DNA of 63,413 bases from Girardia tigrina. Lineage: Eukaryota. Location: positions 1 through 63,413 of the forward strand of contig MQRK01234264.1 of the NCBI GenBank assembly GCA_001938485.1, read 5' to 3'. A program made the position numbers and the translations under genes. The notes under the pieces are model-generated. The model was not told the origin of the DNA. It was given only the letters and a program-made list of their open reading frames with translations, and did not search any database. Positions within the stretch are counted from its first letter, which is position 1. Each line of letters starts with the position of its first letter. Positions 1 to 59,892 of this stretch are shown here, one piece after another.

Positions 1-676
1 TAATTAATTATTTATTTTTTTATTAATTTAATTTAATAATTAATTTATTCTTTAAGATTAATTATTTATTTAATTACCTTATTTAATAAATTAATAATAA
101 TTAATTAAATTTATTTTAATTAATTAATTTAATTCATTGAATAAATAAATTAGTGAATCAATAAATCAATTATTACATAAATGAATAAAAAGTAAATAAA
201 GTAAAGAATAAATTAATTATTGAATGAATAAATTATTTATTTTATTAAATAAATTATTAATGTTGATTTCACTGATTTAATTAAATTTCAATCAATTAAT
301 AATTAATTATTTCATTTTTTATTAATTAATTAACAATTTTATTCATCCATTCTAAACGAAATTATAATCTATACAGATTACATAATATATGGGGGCAGTA
401 TAACATTCGTTCCCTCACCAAATGATCTGCAGCTGCATAAAGTTAATTTACATTGGACGATGCCATTATAATTCTATTTTTAGGTGTAATTACATAAAGG
501 ATTTTAAACATTGGTAAAGTAGGTTCAACACAGTGACATAAATATTCACAACACAGCGAAAGACAGTATATATAACCCCATTGATTATCGCATCACAATC
601 GATAGAAGACAATAAATTCGAAATTATTTATTTCCCAATAACACATCAATCTCAAACAACATCTCTCATCGCTCCA

Positions 677-928
677 TCATCCGACTTGCCATTTCAGAGC
701 GTTGTCCTGGTTACCAAATTGTCTCTGACGCTCGTCCATCGTTCTCTCAGCGTCTCTCATTCGCTGCTCTTTCCTCTTCAATTCCTCAGGATTCTTGACG
801 CCGCGCGACTCCATTTCTCTTTGTCGTTTCTCGGCAGCCTCTAGCTGCAATTTGCGCCGTGTTTCCTGATCGACTGGATCGATCTGGTGATAATCATCTT
901 TCGGGCAACACGAATAACATAATCCCAT
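677..928 (-). CDS. SVIP: Small VCP/p97-interacting protein (SVIP), single-exon ORF, 83 aa
   Basis: N-terminal MGLCYSCC (myristoylation Gly2 plus Cys cluster), VIM-like RRKLQLEAAEKR, ESRG motif and C-terminal LKWQVG*, the hallmarks of SVIP. Confidence 0.9.
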   Translation of the reverse strand: MGLCYSCCPKDDYHQIDPVDQETRRKLQLEAAEKRQREMESRGVKNPEELKRKEQRMRDAERTMDERQRQFGNQDNALKWQVG

Positions 929-2249
929 TTCGAGTCGATTTATTGATCTTCAAATAACACAAAATCGATAGTAAAAATACTAATTCCAAGGAAATTTTGT
1001 TATTGCGAGTTGATTTCACTTTTTTCACCGAAAAAAAAACAAATTCAACTTGCTCGATTAATTTAAATTTGATTTCAAGTTCAATTTACAGTAAATATTA
1101 AAACAAAAATAACGACAATATTCGAGTTTTCAAATATAAATTTTAAATTAATTATATTGATAGATAATTAAAAACTTGCATGTACAATTATTTATAGTCA
1201 GTTTTGTAAAAGTTATTTGGAATTTTGAAAAAAAATTGTTTTTTATTACATAAAAAAGTTGAAAGGTAAGTTGTTTTTCTTGTGTACGCAAGACAAATGT
1301 TCGCATTAGATAAATGCACAAGACTTGCAAGACAAAATTTATGATCATAATATGTTTTAAACAACATAAAAATATTGTTCTTGATTCAATAATGAAAATT
1401 TATTATTCAAAATTTGATTGAGCTATTGTACGATAATTTAAATTCAATTTAGTTGTATATACAGAGAAAAATTTACATTTAAAACAACTATTTAACTGTA
1501 TTGCATGAATAGTGCCACTTTGTATTCATTTTTGCCGGGTCGTTTTGTGAAATCGCTTTGTTGATTATTGGGGAAACGTATTAAATTATTTTTATGAACA
1601 ATTATTTGTTTGAGTATTCTTTACATTTGAAAAAATATTTTGAATTTGAACTATTTGGAGTTAATTAAAACTAATTTTGGAGTTTTTAGAACAATTTAAT
1701 GTAAATACATTTTGTAGTTATTGAATAAGTAATTCGAAATGATGGCGGTTATTCATCCGATAGAGGACGTATTAATGTTATTACCATTTGTGCTAAATTA
1801 ATCTGGTCTAATTAATTTTATATGGAGCATTTAAAGCAAAATACTTAAGTTTTTCAAGCTTTAGGTAATGCTTACGGTTCGGTATCGATGTAAAGCGTAC
1901 AGTAAACTGAAGAATATAAAATTATCCAATTTTTATGCAATCGTTAAATGCGATTCTAGAATACCTTCTATGGGTAAAATATTTCTTAAGTAGGTATCGT
2001 TTTGACTTTTTTTCTTAATATATAATTCTCATTTTGTGATATTTTATTATTGACAACGCCAAAAATAAATGTCTTTCATGTATTTGTATAAATTTTTTGA
2101 ACTTAGATTACATAATTCATTGGGAGTATTCTCTACTAAATATCGTTCACAACCTCTGAACTATGAATCGTTTACTATTCCAATCACTGGCACATAAAAG
2201 ACCATCTAAACTCAAAATGACCACAAAAGATTTTGCTGTTCATTCAGTG

Positions 2250-2800
2250 TTAGTGGTTCGTTCAATTCTAACACTTTTAGGATCTCACTGATATCTAAAT
2301 AGGTTTTCTGTCTTTTTTAAGTGCCCAGAGTCTCTGCAACATTTAATGCATTTAAATATTTACATTTGCTTTTTGCAGCCTTTGTTCCAACTTGCTTTGT
2401 GATACATTGTACACACAGTGAATCTACTATTCGTGAAATTCCTTTTGCATTTGAATGTTAATATCTCTTCCTGAATAACATTTGGAAATTCAAAGGAAGA
2501 TAAATCTTCCAAAGAAGTCTAAAATTATCGACTGACTGACTTACTTGCCACGTTTGCAAAGACCAGAGATTTGAGATCAGTACAAACGATAAATTTTCTC
2601 CCATTCAAATAGTTTATGTGCCAAAACTACTTTTCAAGTAGTACAATAGCCTTTTTAATAATCACTCAGAGTTCAAGATACATTAACAAGTACTTAATCC
2701 GAACCAGTGTTCCCGCCAGAACTTTTCTTTGGAGGAAACATAAAAACATGGGTGGACCACGATGTGCATGCACGTTCTTCTACTCTAAATCCGAGAGCAT
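2250..2800 (-). mobile_element. Highly degenerate Ty3/Gypsy pol (RNase H) remnant
   Basis: Minus strand reads NYLNGRKFIVCTDLKSLVF and HSNAKGISRIVDSLCVQC, paralleling HFLYGKRFLLQTDHKAITF and HSNADAMSRNSC in the Gypsy at 38-38.6 kb. Boundaries approximate. Confidence 0.6.
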
Positions 2801-3406
2801 GCTGATGAGGAAAGAAGGTGATATTCTGGTAATTTATCATAATGTAAAAAATAAGGGTTTCAAATTGATCGAACCTCAAAATACGGCAATAAAACGTAAC
2901 TTTTTATACGTGTTGCGTTCCCCTCTCTCATCTTGTGGATTCTCAGTCCCCAGTCACTTTCTGAGATAAACGACCGTTCTTAATTTACACATTTTGATTC
3001 TGTATTTACACTCTCAATGTATATGGCGAACGGAGGCATCTCCTCCATGCTTATCAATAAGTTTTATGCATTTCTATTTGTCCAGATTCTCTGTAAATTG
3101 AGAAAAACTGATAATTATACAAATTTATATTTTAAAGTAACGTTCGATGCTTACTCGTTAAAACAATAGAATAAATTAATTGTAAATATAGTATAGTATT
3201 ATTAAAGTAATAATTAACTGCCCTTAAATTGTATTCTTATTATTCATGTAATATTTTTATATATTTTTAAATTATAAATTAAAAGAAATTAATTTCTAAA
3301 ATAGTAAAATAATAGAAAATATTAAATATTGCATCAAATATATATTAAGAATACAATTTACGGACAATTAAATTTTACTTTAATAACAATCAAATATTGT
3401 AAACTA

Positions 3407-5040
3407 CAGTCAAATTCGTGTATTAGCAATTCGTCTAATAGCAAAATTCACCTAATAGCAAGTTGTTACAAAGCACTACACAAATGAGTTTGCGGTTGAC
3501 CCTAACCCCTTACTTAGTGTGGTATTAATTGTCATCACAACATGACTGCTAAACGTCCACGCAATGACCTCCAACTACAACAAAAGCATGACATGGTGAA
3601 ACTTTTGCAAAGTGGATGGCAGCAAAAGCAAGTGGCAGACAAATTTGATGTGAATGAATCGACTGTCTCAAGATTGAATAAGCAGCAGGTGGAAATTGTG
3701 GCACACTTCGAGCAGGGAAAGTTGAACATGACAGTTATGTCTAACAAGCCATTTGGCCTAGAGAAGGTTGACACAGATCTTCTGGAGTGGTTAAGAACTG
3801 TGGCTGCCGGAAAACTGGGAATATCTGGAGCTGTACTCAAAGAGAAGGCACAAGATTTCGCGAGAAAACTGAAATTTCAGGACACTAAAGTCAAGAAGAT
3901 CGACATGAATTGGATTAATCGCTTCAAAACACGCCATTCCATTGTTGTAAAAAACTTTATGGCGAAGCAGCGGCTGTTGGTAAAGGAAATGTGGTAGACT
4001 GGCGAATTAATCTTCCTTCAGCAATGTTGAGTCAATGGCCCTTGGTGACATTTTCAACGTTGATAAGATGGGATTATTCTGGTGTTTCTTACCAGATAGC
4101 ACTCATGCCTTCAAAGGCGCAACATGCAGTAGAGGAAAGCGGTCAAAGGAGCGGAGAATAGTCCTATATGGTGCAAGCACATTAGGAGAAAAATTACCGT
4201 TACTTGTGATTGGAAAGTCCAAAATGCCATGCTGCTTCCTTAGAGAACATGTCCCAGTAATGTTTGAAGCAAACAGCCGTGTCTGGTTGACTTCAGAAAT
4301 TTTATTTCAGTATGTTCGACGACTTGAACAACGCATGGCTACAAACAAGAGTAAGATTGCATTGATCCTCGATAATTGTCCTGCTCATCCGACAATCTAA
4401 GGGTGAATGAACATTACACTGTTCTTTGTACCTCCAGATACCACGTCGCATACGCAGCCCATGGATGCAAGGGTTATTCGCAACATAAACTACCACTACA
4501 AATTGGTGTTGGTTCGACGGATGACTGCAGCAATCGACAACCAGCAACCCTTCCAGATCAATCTTCTGCAATCAATACACATCCTCAAGGACTTCTTGGA
4601 AAGTTGATGGAGAGGACCATAAAAAACTGTTTCCACCACGATGGATTCAATGCCATTGGTGAAGAACCTGCAGCTGTGGAGCCTGGGAAGAACAACCCAC
4701 AGACAACATCTTTGAGAGGATGGCAGCTCATTTTGAATTTGTGGATTACAGCAAGTATGTCAATGTGGATGCTGACCTTATCCCCTGGGACTCACCATCA
4801 GAGAAGGCAATTTTGACACTGGCAGGTGGAAGGGAAGGGCAGCCATGCAGCCAAGGGAAGAAATGCCACCATCTCGTATAGAAGCTCATTTTGCCTTGTA
4901 AACTCTCCAAAAATTTCTGGAAGCACAGGATAATGGCTTACCTGCTTTGCAAAGTCTGCGTACAGTGAAAGAATTGTTAACTCAACTTTTTTTACAAAGA
5001 AGTGATAAACTACCATTCCAGATTTTTTAAACAGTAAAAT
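3407..5040 (+). mobile_element. Tigger/pogo DNA transposon remnant (CENP-B HTH + DDE_1), frameshifted, right TIR not found
   Basis: TA|CAGTCAAATTCG start at 3407. ORF pieces: HTH_psq/CENP-B (3542-3997, WINRFKTRH), IFNVDKMGLF, ALILDNCPAH, PPDTTSHTQPMD. Confidence 0.9.
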
Positions 5041-5113
5041 AAAATATATGATTGAATCCCGTATGAATGTTGGATTATTAAATGGTGTCTGTATTATTAC
5101 AATTACATATTTT

Positions 5114-5194
5114 GGGATCTGTGTTACCCTCCTCCCCGTGGTGGATCCTGGGAAACTAGATGGGTTAAAGTCCGTCTCTAGGCGAATGTGGTAA
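5114..5194 (+). ncRNA. HDV-like self-cleaving ribozyme at the 5' end of a LINE
   Basis: P1 GGGAUCU/GGAUCCU with G1-U wobble, L3 UCCCCGU, P1.1 CC/GG, J1.1/4 GAAA, P4 CUA-GAUGGG/UCCGUC-UC-UAG, J4/2 GCGAA with catalytic C5183, P2 UUACC/GGUAA. Confidence 0.8.
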
Positions 5195-5684
5195 AGAAAC
5201 TTACAGGGCTAGCAATCTTGTCTGTGGATATGAAGAACGCTTTCAAAACCCAAACAAGGGGTCTGGAAGGACCCGAAGTCAGAGAATTTTTATCAGAAGT
5301 TGCAGGAGGAGATCGAGAAGGAGAAGAAATTCGCTAGAGAAAAGAAAATGGAACTACTAATTGGAGGAGACTTTAATTGTAGGTTGAAGAGCATCGAAGA
5401 GTGCAAATCGGTTGTAGGTATCTACGCACCTGGAGTTAAGACGTCGGAGAACGGAGAGCTGCTTACCGAGATGGCGATATCATGTGGACTGCGTGTTGAA
5501 AACACCTTTTATAGGAAACAACTTAGCCAGAGAACGAGCTGGACTCATCCTGCAACATCCAGGAGGTCATTACTTGATCTCTTTCTTATTGAAAGAAATC
5601 GAGCTAATAGGTACACGGATATCCGAAGCTACCCAGGCTTTGACTGTGGTTCCAACCACGATCTGGTAGTTATAACTGCCAGAA
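5114..5684 (+). mobile_element. RTE-like non-LTR retrotransposon 5' fragment (5' UTR plus partial APE endonuclease)
   Basis: ORF 5300-5710 carries LIGGDFN, ENGELL, NTFY, SWTHP, LDLFL and GSNHDLV, the APE motifs. No RT follows. Confidence 0.85.
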
Positions 5685-5989
5685 TTTACAGTTTTGAAGA
5701 AAAATTTTGACACATCATGAGAGGATAGTCACTGAGGCATTATTAATAAAGCATTTAAAACCATGCTTAAATATTCAAAGTGAATTATCCAATCCTATTA
5801 AAATTTTTTAATATTAATTAAAAAAAGATTAATTGCGTAATGGTCAATGTGCCATATAAATGACTTGTAATTTGAAATTTACTTCTCAACTGATGATGCC
5901 GTAATGGCGAAACATGTTTTGAGAAATAAAAAACTTTTTAAATGGCGTTTGTTATTCATTTTCTTTACAAATAAATTGCCATTAAATCT

Positions 5990-5990
<1 letters not shown>
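5685..5990 (+). mobile_element. Penelope-like element 3' end (GIY-YIG tail plus pLTR)
   Basis: ERIVTEALLIKHLKPCLNIQSELSNPIKIF* closely matches the GIY-YIG tail at 13164-13288. Followed by a hammerhead and an AATAAA signal. Confidence 0.85.
5883..5925 (+). ncRNA. Minimal type I hammerhead ribozyme (Penelope-associated)
   Basis: Stem I UUCUCAA/UUGAGAA, core CUGAUGA, stem II GCC/GGC, GAAA, palindromic stem III ACAUGU, GUU cleavage triplet (cut after 5918). Confidence 0.85.

Positions 5991-5993
<3 letters not shown>

Positions 5994-6027
<34 letters not shown>
5994..6027. repeat. (TA)n microsatellite
   Basis: Direct reading. Confidence 0.95.
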
Positions 6028-6030
<3 letters not shown>

Positions 6031-6445
6031 ATATAGAAAGTAAGCTAATAAAAAGAATGGAACAAATTTAGGTCAACTAAATAAAGGTACCCTTTTGAAT
6101 AAACGTACTATGTATGGGCTGCTACAACTAATAAGCGCACCGGTGCGCGTATTTCAATAAAATACAGTATGTCAAACATAATAAGATGTAACAATTAATT
6201 TTTATTACAAAAACAAAATTTACAAAAAGAAAATCTATTCATTTTTTAAACATCATCCAAATGTCACTGAAAATTTATTACAAATAAAAGATTGAATGAG
6301 ACAAAAAATAAATGATTCGAATAACTGGTAGTGTAGAAAAACAACCCGTTTACTATTTATAAAAACATGGTCGAAATAGATTAATAAGAATTGATAAATA
6401 TCAATTTCAATTTCCAAACACTGAACGGCCATAAATAAATATAAA

Positions 6446-6928
6446 CTATTGTTGAATACAGCTAAATCGATTAGAGCTATGAGATCTGGTATGTGCGGAG
6501 CGAGAATTACCAGGTTCCTGCTTTGAATTTCCTGATCTTTTCCCTGTCGTTGAGTTTCGACTTCCAATTCGTCGTCTGGGCTGAACAAATCTCGGAACAA
6601 CTGTTTTCGATGGAGATGTCAAATTCGTCGAGGTTAACTTCTTAGTAGTGACAGTGTGTGCATTTTCAATGAATGATAGACGATAGCTCCTGTTTCGCTT
6701 GCTGTTTGGCTGTCGAATTGACTGATTTTCGTTTTGATTATCGTTACAATTGCAACGTTCGTGGAAAGTGGGATCAATTTCTGCAATTAAATTTGGTGTG
6801 GAACTAGGAAGATTATTAGCCAGATAAGACTCCTGAGACATTAGTTTAGTTCCACCGGAAATGTCAGGAGGAAGATGCTTGCGCGCAAAGGGAGGCACAC
6901 TATAGAGAAAGTCACTGGTAATGGAACC
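6446..6928 (-). CDS. Terminal exon of a large host gene; ends in CaaX-like RFSCIQQ*
   Basis: Acceptor cttaaacag|GGT at 6928, phase 0, 160 aa open Ser/Arg/Asn-rich frame, GC content above the flanks. Confidence 0.7.
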   Translation of the reverse strand, partial: GSITSDFLYSVPPFARKHLPPDISGGTKLMSQESYLANNLPSSTPNLIAEIDPTFHERCNCNDNQNENQSIRQPNSKRNRSYRLSFIENAHTVTTKKLTSTNLTSPSKTVVPRFVQPRRRIGSRNSTTGKRSGNSKQEPGNSRSAHTRSHSSNRFSCIQQ

Positions 6929-8257
6929 CTGTTTAAGATAAGAGATTTCAAATATCATTAAGAATTTATGACGAACTTAAAACTAATCTTTTAGTTTTTT
7001 TTAGATTTTACTATATAACAACATCATTCTATAGTTATAGTTTTCAAGTTTCTAATTTTTTTTCTTTATTTTTAAAAAATATTTTTAGCTTAGAGAATGA
7101 TATTCCTCTTGTACCCGCTGGGAACACATATGATAATATTTTTTTTTATTTTTAATGAAATAAATTATTTTATCAATTAACATATTTTCAATACCTTTTT
7201 TAAATTTATATTTTTAAAAACTATTATTTTTGTTATCACTTATTATTAACGACTTCATTTGTTTTAGTAATTAAACATATTTTCAATACAATTACTAAAT
7301 TTATATTTTAAATTTTTTATTATTTTCTAGTATAGAATTAATTAATTTTAAAAATTATCATTTTTATTAAGTTTATATTTTAAAAAAGTTATTATTAACG
7401 ATTTAATGTTAAAGCGAATGTGTTTGGAGTCTCTCTGTTTTTTACAGGATTTGAAACAAACATCTCATTCGCCACAATTTAAATCTATAAAAGAATGTAA
7501 CATATAACTACACTCTTCATTATTTGGAAATTTCTGCTGGAATTGTACTCTTTTTATGGGATACCGATATAATAAAGTTAATTTCAATATGCATGCCTTC
7601 CCTAATGAAGCTTGGCTTGAATCTCTCTTTGCTCTTACCCGTAAATTCAACATTTTTTAAAAGCATATTCAGTCTGAGTTCCATGTATTAAATTAAGATT
7701 TATACAAAAACAAATTTTCTATTGGATAAAGTTGAAATAAATATGTGGATACGTGGAGAGACAAAAATAGACTCTAAGGGTTGCTTTTGCTTTTGAATTA
7801 AATTATTGGTATTCGGAATTTAAATATGAATAAGTATTATATTGATATTATCATTATTTATATTCTTTATCATCTACCCTCAAAACAAATTCAAATTGAC
7901 ATTATCAGACAATCAAGATATCGTTGAATGACGATTTCTGAAAATTTTATAAAGTGATTTGCTTTGCTTGCGCTATATATATTTGATATGTAATTTAGAA
8001 ATAATTAAAATAAAAAATATTAAATAAATAATTAAAGAAAAAAGAATTAAAATCAAAGAAAGTTAAATTAAAATTATATAATTAAATAGAATTTAAATAA
8101 AAAATGAGTTTTAAACAGTTATTAATTGTGATTATTATTTTGAATTGATTCATGTGACTCGTTTTTTTGTTCGAATTTCGAACGTTTTGTTGTTGTTGTT
8201 ATCGACCAGAGCGAGTTTGTGTAAGTGTGAACCAGTACATGTATGCGAATCGATCGG

Positions 8258-10113: not shown

Positions 10114-11849
10114 AAACGGGAACTAAAAATTTTGAAAAATTAAACAAATATTTTTTGATCTGCTTGGCACTTTTAAAGTTGTTAATATATTTTCAAGGTA
10201 AATAATTTTTAATCTAAACATTAAGATTTTCTACGATTTCGCTATCTTTGAAATTTTTCCAATATATTACTTTTTATGGATTCACATATTTATTAGTAAA
10301 ATTGCAAGGGAAATCCCTGACTTGTCCAATGGCCACACTTCCTATTTTCTTTGATAAAAAAGTACTTTACATTAAAACAATTAATTCACCAAAACATTTT
10401 CAAAAATAAAATATTTTATATACTTTGTCACATTAAATATTGTTTTATGTAATAAGAGATTGTAAAAAATAATTAACTTATAAACAATATTATATACCAC
10501 TTTGAAAAGGAAATAATTTGATTAAGTAATAACAGATAAATCTAAACAAAATCTAAAACTATCATTCAAAATGGAAAACTGTTGCTTAAAAAATTATAAT
10601 TTAGTTTAACAAATATGTTGTTGTGCAAAATCTCTTAGAGATATCGTTTGCATCGCAAGGTTATAGAATGAGTTTTTCTCCAGAAACTTAGAATAATAAA
10701 ATTAACTTTCAAAAAATAAGAAGCCCTAAGGACCAAGAAATTTAATTTATTTTTTCCTGAAATATTTTCTTAATAATTTTTTATTAAGAGTTCATATTTA
10801 ATATATATTTCATATTTAATATTCTTAACATATTATTCTACTGTGTTTTCTTATTATAACTTGGGAAAGAAATAGGGTCCGACTGATCTTAAAAAGAAGT
10901 TGATATTGTTTTTTCTGATCATTATAAATGTTATTGATACTGCGCTACTAATGATATTTTAAATGAGTATTTATAAATAGTATTAATAACCTGAATATAT
11001 AAATAACCTACAAGTACTGCTCCAATACATGAATTTGTTAATTTTATCAAACCAAATGCACATAACAGATAATAATAGACTCTGAAGAGATAAATTTATA
11101 CATAAATAAAATTTCTTCAATTAATTTTTTCATAAGATTAATTGTGACGAGCAAATTAATATTTGACGACATTGGATCGAATCTTAATACACATTTCAAA
11201 ACCGTGAAGTGAGATAAAATAGACGCCCACCGATGACTGTTTTATATCAGTAACAAAAATTTATTTAATGTAATGAAGTTGAAACAATTGAATGTCTTTA
11301 AATTATCTAATTTCAACAAAATTTCAACAATAGAAAAATCAATAATTGATGACATTTGTAAGCGATACCCAGAGTAACAAAGATATTTGAACAAATGTAT
11401 TTTAAAAATCAAATTATAATCACACAACAATACACTTATTGATGATTATGTTTGATGGACTGTCTACCTCTATGAACGTTTTTTTCTTTACAGTTCGACC
11501 AAAGAGACATTTTATTACCAATCATAGGAATATGTATCTATATAATAAAAAGAATAAAAGCATTGTGCTATACTAAAGTTGACAATCAGCCAATTTTATT
11601 TTTAACGAAGTACAGATCAATATTCATGATTGATAAAAGGGATATCGGAAAAATGTCATTAGCCAAACACAAAATAGAAAACACATAGAGAACCAATATT
11701 GGTAAAACTTTATCGACAAGCAAAACATTTAGTCAAATGACTGTAGTCAGACGACCTTATTCGAATCCACCTAGAACCTGACTTTCGCTACTATAGATAT
11801 ATGCATGATTCAACTTTAATCCGATAATTTCAGGAAAGCCGACAACGTG

Positions 11850-12660
11850 GAGACGTTAATTCAATAATTTTGCGAGGATTTCCAAATCTAAACAGAAGAC
11901 CGCGGAAAGAGATTTGAAAGATAAATACAAAAAGCTCCATAATACCATAGTGGGCTAAAAAGATCGATTACGGAAAGCATTTGTTTGGACATTCTCACTA
12001 TTCGAAGACTTAACAGAGGCGTGGTAGTACAGGATGAAGGACGATATAACGGAGACTTTCTATGAAAAACTGAGAGATTCACAAACATGATTTTTAACAT
12101 AAAATGAGAGGCTTTCAAGGAAGCACCGTTGTGACGATATGGATATAAAAGAAAGTGTGGCTAAACAAGGTGAAAGGAATAGAGGAGATAAAAGAGAAGA
12201 TAATAGCAATAAATGACATCAAAAATGTAACAGAAGAAATGAATGTAGTAAGAGACAAAGGGATCTTGGAGTTATCGAAATGAAGTGGCAGTGAATAGCA
12301 GTAGATACGGACAAAATCGAACAGAGTGAAATACCCAAACTATTAACGAATATAGGCACGGAATTGATTAAATGTCAAACTGGACAGAAAGAAGGTCACA
12401 AAAGTGAGGCGTGTAGACAACGAGAATCAATCAGGTGTTTTGGATGTAGAAAAGAAGGAGCCGTTGTAAAAAAAATATCTGAAAGGAAATCAGTAAGATG
12501 CTATAGTTGTGGTTAACTGGGACACGTAAGAAGAAAGTGTCCGAACATAGAATGTAAGATATTTCAAAATAGAGGTCACAAAGAAAGTGAATGTTATACA
12601 AGACTACATGGAAGAATAAGAGAACAAAGTACAGATAACAATAATTACCAGGAATGGGTG
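11850..12660 (+). mobile_element. Degenerate LTR-retrotransposon gag with three CCHC zinc knuckles
   Basis: CQTGQKEGHKSEAC, CYSCG*LGHVRRKC and CKIFQNRGHKESEC at ~12370-12600. Confidence 0.7.
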
Positions 12661-12799
12661 TTCGCATTATTCTGTATTGAAATTTTTTTAATTTGTATTT
12701 TGTTAATTACTTTATTTTTAACAAAAAATATTTTATAAAATTTTTTTATAATAACAAATTACCATGTAAACATTATTGTAGAATTATTTTTTTATGTCT

Positions 12800-13530
12800 C
12801 AATGTCACACAATCTACCAACCCTACTTATTATGAGCAGTTACTCTCGGTACCAAAGCACCAGAATCAACAAATTGCAGAAATATATATCCAGTTCAGTA
12901 AGATTGTTAAAATTTACTTCTATGCCGATTGTCTGACAGTGTTGGTTGTAAATGCAAGTTTAAACCTGTCAAAATTATTTAAAATTATCAATTAAATTAT
13001 CAATTCAAATGTCACAAGTGCGAAGCCTTGTACATTGGAGAGACAAGTCGTCATCTCCGCACTAGAATTGCTGAACATACTCAATCGAGTAGAAATAGTT
13101 CGATATTGAGCCANNNNNNNNNNNNNNNNNNNNNNNNNNNNNNNNNNNNNNNNNNNNNNNNNNAAGTGATTTTAAATAATTTTGACACAAATTATGAAAG
13201 GATTATTGCCGAAGCATTGTTAATAAAGCATCATAAACCATGCTTAAACGTGCAAGGTGATTCATCTAATCATATTAAAGTTATTTAAAATATCATTAAA
13301 AATATTTTTCTTTTTTTTAAGAAAAGAAAAAAAAAGAATGTTTTTGAGACGTATGATGTAATAGTTTTTCAACTATATAAATAGCAATTAATCACTTTAT
13401 TTCATTGCACTAAAGATGCCGAAATGGTGAAACGCGTTTGTATTGGGAATAAATTTAATATTAAAAAATGGCTTTTCTTTTCATTATATAGATTCCATCT
13501 CAATGAAAACAACTACAGTCGGCTACTTGA
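12800..13530 (+). mobile_element. Penelope-like element 3' fragment (GIY-YIG endonuclease plus pLTR)
   Basis: YQFKCHKCEALYIGETSRHLRTRIAEH...EALLIKHHKPCLNVQ, followed by a hammerhead-like fold. Confidence 0.9.
13403..13445 (+). ncRNA. Hammerhead ribozyme with mutated core (CUAAAGA)
   Basis: Stem I CAUUGCA/UGUAUUG, stem II GCC/GGU, GAAA, palindromic ACGCGU, GUU. The conserved G5 is A. Confidence 0.75.
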
Positions 13531-13619
13531 ATAATTTTATAACTTCAAGCTATATACTTAATCAAAATAATCTAATTTCAATTATCAAATTAAAATACAC
13601 AAAAAATAATTAAAATTAC

Positions 13620-14381
13620 TCTTTTTCGATGAATTTTACTATGTCGAAAGTGAAAACTAGATTTATTGGAAGGAAACAAAAACTTTTTGGACCCGGAAAA
13701 CTTTTCTGATGCCGTAACATTTTTGAAAGCCATGAAAATATCATTTAAAGATCTTTGTAAAAATCCGGAACGCTTGTGTTTATCTTTGCTTTCAATACTG
13801 GTATTTTTCAAACTGAAAGAAACTTGAGTTTCTTTGAAACTTTCTGAACTGCTATAATGAACAATGTTAATTTCTGATGCATAATTATGAACTTTAGGCA
13901 AGTTTTGTAACTGATTCGATATGGAACAGAGAGCGCCTGGTTCACACGATGACTGTCTACTGAGATATTTTTTATCTGAAGGCAAATCTCCTGAAGCTGA
14001 CAGTAGTTCAAGAGAGCTGAGATTAAGATTGTTTTCCCATTCGATCAAAGAGCGGGTCGAATAATCACCGGTTGAAAAACGTTTACGCATGTGTTCCTCA
14101 AGCATTTTCCTTTTTGTGCGTCGAATAATTGTTGATTGTGTGTTATTGGAATTTGGCGGAGAAAAAGATGACGAACAAGGTTTAGAATCTTCACTGATAT
14201 AATCAAGATTCGGTTGTGATAGATGTTTGTCGTCTTGCAAAACCGTACTAATGGGACTTTTAGAAAACGGCTTATGCCGAGGAACTGCAGGAGGCTTACC
14301 ATGTGGTATTTTTGGAACATCCACTAAATAATCTACTTCACCTGCACGAATTTTGTTATCGATTCTCACCACCGGGCTACC
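13620..14381 (-). CDS. Internal exon (254 aa, Ser/Pro-rich) of the host gene
   Basis: Acceptor ttattcag|GGT at 14381, donor AGA|gtaatt at 13620, 762 bp, phase 0-0, fully open. Confidence 0.75.
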
Positions 14382-15697
14382 CTGAATAATTTTAACACGT
14401 CAAAAACAGATCCGATGTTAAATAATAAATAATTTAAATTTTATGCATTACTAATTAAAACATACATTACAACAACATATGTTGAGAGGATTTTAGAAAT
14501 ACTGTAATATGAACAAACCAAAAGACATGATAAAATAAGATTATGTTGGCATGAAATCACTTCTAATTTATGAATTTGATAAAATTATTTATTTAAGAAA
14601 TTAATGCCATAGTTGAATCTTTATAATTATATACATATATTATATATATTAAAAGTAATATTCAGGAGATTCTAGACAAGGTAAGAATATTTTGTTTTCA
14701 GTGTAGTGAATAAATACCCTCCCATCGGTTTGGATAATTGGCACAACAGCCCCACACAAACATCTGTTATCCCTTGATAATTTATATTATTTTTAAAAAC
14801 AATCTCTCCTAGATGCTTAATTAAATTTAAATATAATAAAACACTAAACAAATTTTAGATGTTAATTAATAATAAAATATGCAAAAATAAATAATTTTAT
14901 AAAATAAAAAGCATGGTTAAAATATTTGATATGAATTATAGTAAAATAAATATATTCTGTTTTCATTTATATTTGATATATTTGATTTTACTATATTTGA
15001 TATGGATTATAATAAAATAAATATTTTCTGTTTTCATTTATGTAAATTTATATTTTTTGGTTTTCCTTTTATGAATTTCCCAAAATATTATTAAAGAATC
15101 AAAAATGACATTTAAATGTGGAAGTAATAAAATAATTAATGCAAAATCGTCTAGATAGAAAATTAATATTTTATCGTTGAAAAATAAACTGAATAAATTG
15201 GTCGAGAATATCTGACGAATAAATTATGCGAGCGGCATTACTGCTGGTGGAATATTCTGCAAATTAATACTACTAAGTTAGTAGTTAAAATTTATTAAAA
15301 TTATTTCATGATTATTGCTTTATTTCCAAACTAAAGGAAATAGAGTAGGTTTAGGCTGAGGATCAACGAATGTTCATCATATACCTTCTTCAAGTGAGGA
15401 CATAGAACTATGTCTATAAGAAATTATCTCAATACTTATAATTTAAAAATTTTATTCATCGAAAATAAGATAATATTTATTAGTCAAAAGCAATTTAAAT
15501 AAATCAAGCAAAACTTAAAAGAAAACTTAAGGATGTGTATCATAAAATGGTAAAGTTTATCTTGACATCATGAAGATCAAATTGCTAATGAGTATAACCC
15601 TTCACAATTTTAAACTATAAAATAATGTGAGCATTGTATAAACAAGGTTCTCGCATAGATCTTATGACACTTTTAAACATAAGGATATCAAAATATA

Positions 15698-28329: not shown

Positions 28330-28830
28330 ATTGCCTGGAAAATGTTGGATTCTATTCATTTCCTCTTTAATATTATGATAAGACTATAACTTCTGATTGC
28401 TAACTGGGATTCTTTCATTTTTTTGCATTTCACATCGTATGCACAGGCAAATACCTCGATTACAACTATTACTGGTGATAAATGTACTACCGAGATAACA
28501 AAACTACTTTATCTATTCTATGATGTTCTCTTCACACTTAACTCACGGTATTCGCATCTTCAAATCATTGATGAGATACACAACTTTCGTCTCGGTGGTG
28601 CTGAATTTTAATCTGAATTCGGAAAATGCGTTTCTATGTATATCTAGATTTCTACCGTTACAATCAATATCAGTATCAATAATGCATAGGTCTTCCGCAT
28701 ATGCTAGCATATTGACTTGTATTTTAGAATCATTGTTAATTTATGAGTGCTACCTTACTTATGAAACCTTTCCGTACAGTCGTATGAACAGTATGAATGA
28801 TGATATCAATGTATTTACAATATAACCTGA
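28330..28830 (-). mobile_element. Degenerate non-LTR (RTE/CR1-like) reverse transcriptase fragment
   Basis: VNMLAYAEDLCII (YADD motif), LKFSTTETKVV and FCYLGS on the minus strand. Confidence 0.75.
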
Positions 28831-59844: not shown

Positions 59845-59892
59845 TTATTTATTTAATTTCGACGGTTTAACCGTCATCATCAGAACAAATAA
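59845..59892 (-). ncRNA. Hammerhead ribozyme-like fold with truncated stem III
   Basis: UUAUUUGUU-CUGAUGA-U-GACGG-UUAAA-CCGUC-GAAA-UUA-AAUAAAUAA. Confidence 0.7.

Follow-up and report, generated by a model that had tools for sequence, protein, structure and literature searches.

Two ribozyme motifs of different parentage in a composite, most likely dead, retroelement insertion of Girardia tigrina

An HDV-like ribozyme fold and a minimal hammerhead, both real motifs, lie on one strand of a 63,413-nt stretch of Girardia tigrina DNA (GenBank assembly GCA_001938485.1, contig MQRK01234264.1; hereafter, the window). Their predicted cut sites enclose a unit of 805 nt (5114-5918), the length originally predicted. 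The unit is most likely a composite insertion that is now dead, and its anatomy matches that of a hybrid SIDE: the ribozyme-bearing 5′ end of one element, here a LINE, is followed across an internal deletion by the 3′ end of another, here a Penelope-like element. Each parent belongs to a high-copy family, and each motif is an established feature of the element class concerned. The coordinates of the unit, its parts and its neighbors are collected in Table 1.

Table 1 Features of the window that bear on the composite unit
Feature	Position	Strand	Remarks
SVIP	677-949	-	PF15811, E 2.3e-12
Decayed Tigger/pogo-type DNA transposon	3407-5091	+	Pfam CENP-B_N, HTH_Tnp_Tc5 and DDE_1; broken frames
HDV-like ribozyme fold	5114-5195	+	Predicted cut before G5114; sub-threshold Rfam scores and descriptor
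Rest of retained LINE 5′ head	5196-5281	+	Parent copies go on with other sequence after 5281
C-terminal half of LINE APE endonuclease	5281-5683	+	About the first 100 residues, including the ET motif, absent
5′-truncated Penelope-like element	5682-~5990	+	Frameshifted GIY-YIG tail, 3′ untranslated region with hammerhead
Minimal type I hammerhead	5883-5925 (core 5890-5918)	+	Predicted cut after 5918, GUU triplet
(TA)17 microsatellite	5994-6027	.	Abuts the Penelope 3′ end
Second truncated Penelope-like copy	12983-13490	+	GIY-YIG, decayed hammerhead
Decayed Penelope-type hammerhead	~13409	+	Core changed; other stem III palindrome (copy near 13432), also perfect
Minimal hammerhead of another family	59845-59892 (59883)	-	Intact-looking; 9-bp stem I, long stem II, no stem III

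The HDV-like ribozyme had been predicted to cut before position 5114, and this predicted fold is supported by sub-threshold Rfam scores, by its pairings and by a descriptor search. In a scan of positions 4900-6100, RF00094 scored 33.9 bits (E 0.0076) and RF02682 scored 26.6 bits (E 0.015), both below the gathering score; a scan of the whole window at the gathering level gave no match. As read from the sequence, the P1 helix is complete (5114-5120/5143-5149, 7 of 7 pairs) with a G.U pair at the cut site, P2 has five pairs (5124-5128/5190-5194) followed by a bulge or mismatch, and P3 retains two of three pairs, with a U.U mismatch at 5130/5142. The P1.1 pairs are C5134-C5135/G5150-G5151, P4 spans 5156-5164/5171-5181, and C5183 in J4/2 is the putative catalytic cytidine. 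The features of the HDV-like class are thus present: a P1 of 6-7 bp with a G.U pair, P2, P4, P1.1 and the catalytic C. Descriptors for this fold and for the hammerhead were written after the motifs had been seen and were tested against 100 block-wise shuffles. The HDV descriptor finds a single locus in the window and was matched in one of the 100 shuffles, and the hammerhead descriptor finds two loci and was matched in none. ViennaRNA probabilities for P1 and P2 were dropped as a test of HDV folding, as pseudoknots lie outside that model. For trypanosomatid HDV-like copies, the accessible text of PMC4035085 describes fold defects and upstream sequence that altered or abolished cleavage.

To place the unit among its relatives, contigs from four of 24 public runs (X1, X2, X3 and X8) were aligned on positions 590-5990; the summed depth of these contigs does not equate to copy number. 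At 5115, depth rises from 2,198 to 451,393 in X1, and by 154-fold, 195-fold and 41-fold in X2, X3 and X8, respectively; identical unique pieces in X1 have a depth of 114-207. Summed over all its positions (2,198 x 181), the X1 bin 4934-5114 does not reach the depth of a single position in the bin after it (451,393), which places the start of the shared family sequence at 5114/5115. It is a solid observation that this genome contains a high-copy LINE family whose first nucleotides lie at the predicted HDV cleavage site. Position 5195 is a C in 99% of the X1 depth and an A in the window copy; a C would add a pair to P2. Run X3, in which a SVIP piece with no differences ends in poly(A), is probably an RNA run; none of the runs is catalogued as RNA. 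The three X3 pieces listed in the unit differ from the window by 24-45 letters and so come from other copies, and the empty X3 bins upstream of the unit do not count as evidence.

Within the unit, the contigs come loose from the window at two points. Among the best 24 of 1775 rows, loose ends behind 5281 were counted in 47 (X1), 41 (X2), 4 (X3) and 5 (X8) contigs, and loose ends before 5281, leading into the APE sequence, in 17 (X1) and 15 (X2). In the same rows, 21 (X1) and 12 (X2) contigs end loosely behind 5683, with the LINE continuing, and 63 (X1), 39 (X2), 9 (X3) and 13 (X8) do so before 5682. With loose ends at both points, the unit consists of three pieces that overlap by 1 nt at 5281 and by 2 nt at 5682/5683. 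The anatomy of the original prediction, a LINE 5′ UTR and partial APE endonuclease ahead of a Penelope tail, is therefore borne out in its parts, and its junction near 5684 is placed by the contig ends at 5682/5683; it counted two pieces, however, and missed the 5281 junction, at which the remainder of the UTR and, of the APE domain, the N-terminal half are missing. Splicing as the source of the 5281 deletion was rejected, as the joined letters, judged by eye, misfit a GT-AG cut.

No crossing of these junctions appears among the contig pieces listed. Among the best 32 of ~12,300 contig pieces, 14 fall in the unit and 10 reach a junction; all 10 diverge there. The pieces listed are the longest and are therefore biased to diverged copies; a young, near-identical chimeric family would yield short contigs, outside these best 32. 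The ratio of head to APE to Penelope depth varies from run to run, being ~1.1:1:1.9 in X1, ~1.6:1:3.1 in X2, ~1.8:1:19 in X3 and ~3:1:23 in X8, and the head and APE bins of X1 come out near-equal (451k, 426k and 421k). Among the 15 of 65 joints listed, further family copies with deletions or inversions have about single-copy depth; 5380-5528, for example, stands at 160 and 77, against the 114-207 of identical unique pieces in X1. A search of JGI metagenome contigs with the junction 22-mer gave no matches, a result that is uninformative for this eukaryote.

The APE fragment matches PF14529 (E 1.2e-5) and is 55-56% identical to the APE-RT ORFs of two relatives (P0001 and P0002). By tblastn, it aligns only to residues 94-236 of P0001 and residues 106-245 of a third relative, P0003. 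In these relatives, APE and RT lie in one ORF with three C2H2-type motifs, P0001 combining PF14529 with PF00078. Judged by its motifs, the LINE parent of head and APE is presumably RTE-like, and the two pieces probably derive from one LINE family. In the PDB, the RTs recovered were limited to those of L1, R2 and group II introns. Protein searches found two near-identical copies of the family (P0004 and P0020), but both shift frame before 5683 and so are silent on the junction; junction peptides were found in none of the 166 relative proteins examined, and the window's own ORFs are absent from the protein collection searched. With the APE query, viral and prokaryote contigs gave no confirmed locus, which is uninformative for this eukaryote. 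A distant LINE locus (43%) has an intact 1282-aa APE-RT-zinc-finger ORF, at 909-4757 of that locus, with ~900 nt upstream, and the locus gave no Rfam ribozyme match at E<=1. A candidate RT motif at 5185-5250 was set aside as chance-level (E 0.55). Elsewhere in the window, the minus strand carries at 28459-28740 the decayed remnant of an RT from this broad group of LINEs, 37% identical to P0001.

The Penelope tail is 78% identical over 128 nt to the second copy in the window (13175-13302), whose frame matches GIY-YIG (PF01541, E 6.7e-6); the tail alone (31 aa) gave no Pfam match. Its frame breaks near 5713 and reaches a stop at 5806-5808, and homology to the Penelope family runs to ~5989. The 5713 frameshift is shared by most of the family depth, and the chimera was rejected as its source: the in-frame form makes up 15-24% in the four runs and the APE:Penelope ratios differ ~tenfold, so the deficit is unrelated to the chimera.

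In the 3′ terminal region after the GIY-YIG ORF, which is its position in the Penelope type, lies the hammerhead. The features given for the Penelope minimal hammerhead in the accessible text of PMC4209133 are present: the core, stems I and II, an extra base after A9, the G10.1-C11.1 pair and a palindromic stem III. Stem I has 7 bp (5883-5889/5919-5925), stem II has 3 bp (5898-5900/5906-5908), a single extra U follows A9, and positions 5912-5917 form the stem III palindrome, with a fold z of -3.46. The core, the stems and the descriptor search against shuffles uphold the claim of a hammerhead with a predicted cut after 5918, on the same strand as the HDV-like fold. Its activity is another matter. 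Stem III, with a 2-nt loop, cannot close in the monomer, the palindrome duplex has a calculated energy of -4.6 kcal/mol, and a 2-bp palindromic stem III predicts cleavage in the dimer only, at low activity. GUU triplets, moreover, are cleaved more slowly than GUC. When a minimal Penelope hammerhead from Schistosoma was tested, the monomer showed no activity and the dimer cleaved weakly (accessible text of PMC4209133), and in the accessible part of a study of Xenopus retrozymes 8 of 9 dimers were uncleaved (bioRxiv 10.64898/2026.07.22.740005). Penelope-type hammerhead tails are common, as the window holds two further ones, the decayed one at ~13409 and the minus-strand one at 59883. The palindrome at ~13432 differs from that at 5912 and yet is perfect, as dimer pairing would require. 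No hammerhead pattern was matched in viral contigs, a collection that is uninformative for this eukaryote.

The window has a GC content of 28%, contains 1,581 N and is repeat-dense, with several broken transposases and Penelope tails. The Tigger/pogo-type element ends 22 nt upstream of the HDV cut site; its ends are TA-flanked, its right end weakly matches the left as a terminal repeat, and the left end contains three 17-nt sub-repeats. This element is a possible source of plus-strand read-through into the unit; LINE RNA within read-through transcripts is released by HDV-like motifs. At the other end of the unit, the (TA)17 microsatellite is the likely target site of the insertion; two X3 contigs also enter a TA tract after 5989. 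The unit had been placed between SVIP and the last exon of a host gene, antisense to both. For SVIP, on the minus strand, this placement stands; on the host-gene side, there is a downstream minus-strand ORF ending at 6446 without a Pfam match, and neither of the minus-strand ORFs of the presumed host gene (6446-6976 and 13590-14399) gave one. In the SVIP region (771-1132), a T>C difference at 842 accounts for 3,676 of the 3,884 X1 depth and for all of the X8 depth, and X3 has mostly the window's version. These values mark a paralogue of higher depth and suggest that SVIP-like sequence is multi-copy.

For the origin of the unit, we favor a single integration in which reverse transcriptase jumped between templates and left a dead, single- or low-copy, three-piece retroelement insertion, an account that we hold to be about as probable as its negation. 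The jump mechanism, the low copy number and the inactivity of the unit are what we infer. Penelope RNA would have been primed at the (TA)n site and ~310 nt of it copied, after which the reverse transcriptase would have switched to LINE RNA at 5682/5683, where the overlap is 2 nt. It would have reached the 5′ UTR by jumping again at 5281, with a 1-nt overlap, and would have run off the template at G5114, the 5′ end left by the ribozyme. On this account, the two ribozyme motifs are passengers, each inherited from its parent. In agreement with this sequence of steps, the two parent families part from the window at precisely 5281 and 5682/5683, no contig crosses either junction among the best 32 of ~12,300, and the depth ratios are uncoupled across runs. 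The unit also starts at the 5′ end of the LINE family and finishes at the Penelope 3′ end, in one polarity and with no spacer DNA. Searched for in the window with up to three mismatches, none of four parent-continuation motifs was found. No target-site duplication was found around the unit, and, according to the accessible text of PMC8557442, Penelope-like insertions at microsatellites often lack one. Template jumps and hybrids of a ribozyme head with a foreign tail are documented for R2/R1 of Drosophila (accessible text of PMC3414825), but the authors of that study prefer DNA-level recombination for their hybrids, and overlaps of 1-2 nt fit recombination equally well. The near-equal head and APE bins of X1 are what a shared unit would give, and the three variant rows inside the unit, among 40 listed of 939, fit a young copy; both observations speak against a one-off copy. 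The reading as a dead passenger has to accommodate an 805-nt RNA that folds better than its shuffles (z -2.8, 0 of 20), as it does when shuffled piecewise (z -2.2, 1 of 30).

The same anatomy could have been assembled at the DNA level, if a full-length LINE inserted, a Penelope-like element landed in its APE sequence in the same orientation, and deletions then removed the middle of the LINE and all that lay 3′ of the Penelope piece. We regard this history as rather unlikely. It is in keeping with a repeat-dense window of broken transposases and Penelope tails, with the many internal deletions among family copies and with a near-palindrome (5662-5683) that ends at the junction, but it needs four events, including the loss of ~3 kb of LINE without residue. 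Neither the continuation motifs (0 of 4) nor a duplication around the Penelope piece was found, and the few variants in the unit, among the rows listed, suggest that little time has passed. The simpler alternative given with the original prediction, a chance Penelope insertion that truncated a LINE, holds up but is incomplete: the window lacks the LINE continuation, and the LINE piece has an internal deletion of its own. That the unit is an artefact of assembly, in which high-copy repeats were collapsed and mis-joined, is very unlikely. The 1,581 N in the window, the high depth of both families and the lack of a contig spanning either junction among the best 32 of ~12,300 would suit such an error. 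The overlaps of 1-2 nt, however, are presumably far under the word lengths that cause mis-joins in graph assemblers, and the flanking pieces are identical to X1 (0 differences).

At one locus, a mobile hybrid would look identical to the product of template jumps. In this case, the unit would belong to an amplified, non-autonomous, SIDE-like family: the HDV-like ribozyme would trim read-through RNA at 5114, the Penelope tail would recruit the reverse transcriptase and endonuclease, and a linear RNA of ~880 nt would transpose. The ends of the unit are both functional family ends, the core HDV residues are intact, and the head and APE depths are near-equal in X1, all as such a family would have it. 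In the accessible parts of the respective studies, R2/R1 hybrids follow the same logic (PMC3414825), RTE/Vingi 5′ parts occur with exchanged tails in SINEs (PMC5786205), and Penelope terminal repeats have founded non-autonomous elements (bioRxiv 10.64898/2026.07.22.740005). Nevertheless, we consider amplification unlikely: none of the 10 listed junction-reaching pieces crosses, the depth ratios vary by run, no second copy occurs within 63 kb, and the unit would carry a dead 402-nt APE piece without evident use.

The original prediction went further and read the unit as a candidate circularizable RNA, which the weak hammerhead type, the DNA past the cut and the lack of a tandem copy do not favor. 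In this reading, an 805-nt RNA would be cut by both ribozymes and ligated by RtcB, and the circle would be the functional or replicating form, making the unit a retrozyme with two different ribozymes; we judge this highly improbable. Its chemistry is sound. Cleavage leaves a 5′-OH at 5114 and a 2′,3′-cyclic phosphate at 5918, ends that suit RtcB, as the prediction stated in agreement with established knowledge. Penelope-family transcripts with the same palindrome, whose bins in X3, the probable RNA run, have summed depths of 10,189-13,875, could supply a dimer partner, and the 805-mer has the modest excess of folding given above (z -2.8; piecewise z -2.2). Ligation of the circle restores a nucleotide 5′ of G5114, so that the HDV fold could cut it again; a predicted helix of 5114-5128 with 5610-5624 could block this re-cleavage. 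As a selected feature, this helix was rejected, being matched by 48 of 1000 shuffles and, when any 15-mer of the ribozyme was allowed, in 96 of 100. Stem III, in contrast, is impossible in the monomer, and the Schistosoma and Xenopus results above (PMC4209133; bioRxiv 10.64898/2026.07.22.740005; both from accessible text) show how poorly such hammerheads cleave. As Penelope sequence follows the cut site at 5918 for another ~70 nt of DNA (5919-~5990), an 805-nt circle was not the template of the insertion. A circle would also lose half of hammerhead stem I, and its progeny would lack an intact hammerhead. No tandem or permuted copy was found by self-BLAST of 3400-6100, and no 5918-to-5114 joint appears among the 15 of 65 contig joints listed. 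A broader version, in which the unit is a young, amplified, cross-order retroelement with a LINE HDV head on a Penelope tail, is copied by the Penelope machinery and yields 805-nt circles through the HDV cut and through hammerheads of abundant Penelope RNA that dimerize in trans, strikes us as decidedly doubtful.

Among known systems, the hybrid SIDEs of R2/R1 in Drosophila are closely comparable in their parts: in the accessible text of PMC3414825, they have an HDV head before a foreign 3′ end, an internal deletion and no promoter. In them, however, both partners are LINE-type, the hybrids sit in rDNA as multiple copies flanked by target-site duplications, and cleavage by their ribozymes has been shown. 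The present unit differs in that its tail comes from the Penelope order and bears a second, putative ribozyme. HDV-like ribozyme heads on LINEs are known (PMC6765202). In RTE, Ingi/L1Tc, R2 and other LINEs, as in this family, the fold marks the exact 5′ end, whereas the unit, set beside these LINEs and their bipartite derivatives NARTc, RIME and SIDER, is without the LINE's own 3′ end (accessible text of PMC6765202, PMC4035085 and PMC5786205). Minimal hammerheads in Penelope repeats are likewise known (PMC8557442), and the unit shares with Penelope elements a GIY-YIG tail followed by a hammerhead, the extra base after A9, the palindromic stem III, 5′ truncation and a microsatellite neighbor (accessible text of PMC4209133 and PMC8557442). 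Compared with Penelope elements that have pseudo-LTRs, it is a solo truncated tail joined to a LINE, with no tandem partner in cis. Non-LTR retrozymes have a Penelope-type hammerhead too, and the size of the unit falls within their range of 51-972 bp (accessible text of PMC7761336 and bioRxiv 10.64898/2026.07.22.740005); they consist, however, of tandem repeats, every unit of which has its own hammerhead (PMC7761336). The present unit is single, has one hammerhead and an HDV-like fold, and extends past the cut site; in keeping with this, self-BLAST of 3400-6100 gave no tandem copy. No LINE-head/Penelope-tail element was found in the literature searched, which took in few subscription papers.

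What the unit signifies depends on its copy number. If single-copy, it is not much more than a neat fossil, one which suggests that a reverse transcriptase can change templates between a Penelope RNA and a LINE RNA. If it were amplified, a Penelope 3′ end of ~310 nt would be enough to mobilize a foreign ribozyme-released RNA. The unit would then serve as a naturally occurring minimal substrate for Penelope integration, a reaction that is poorly understood, and as a test of the role of the Penelope hammerhead.

Some smaller observations concern the LINE head and the two junctions. Other upstream sequence leads into the segment 5239-5281 in 16 X1 contigs, among the rows listed, and in one X8 contig the ribozyme core before 5147 is a variant; these contigs mark sister subfamilies of the LINE that differ in their heads. 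The nine letters across the 5281 junction (5278-5286) are identical to the first nine of the LINE continuation after 5683, as given by the X1 loose-end consensus, and eight of the nine agree in X2; the chance of this match is ~1e-5 for one fixed comparison at a single offset. It may reflect a microhomology bridge or a circularly permuted APE piece of ~406 nt. Finally, the palindrome at 5662-5683 is near-perfect over its 22 nt, and its position at the LINE/Penelope junction could mark a polymerase stall or a cut site.
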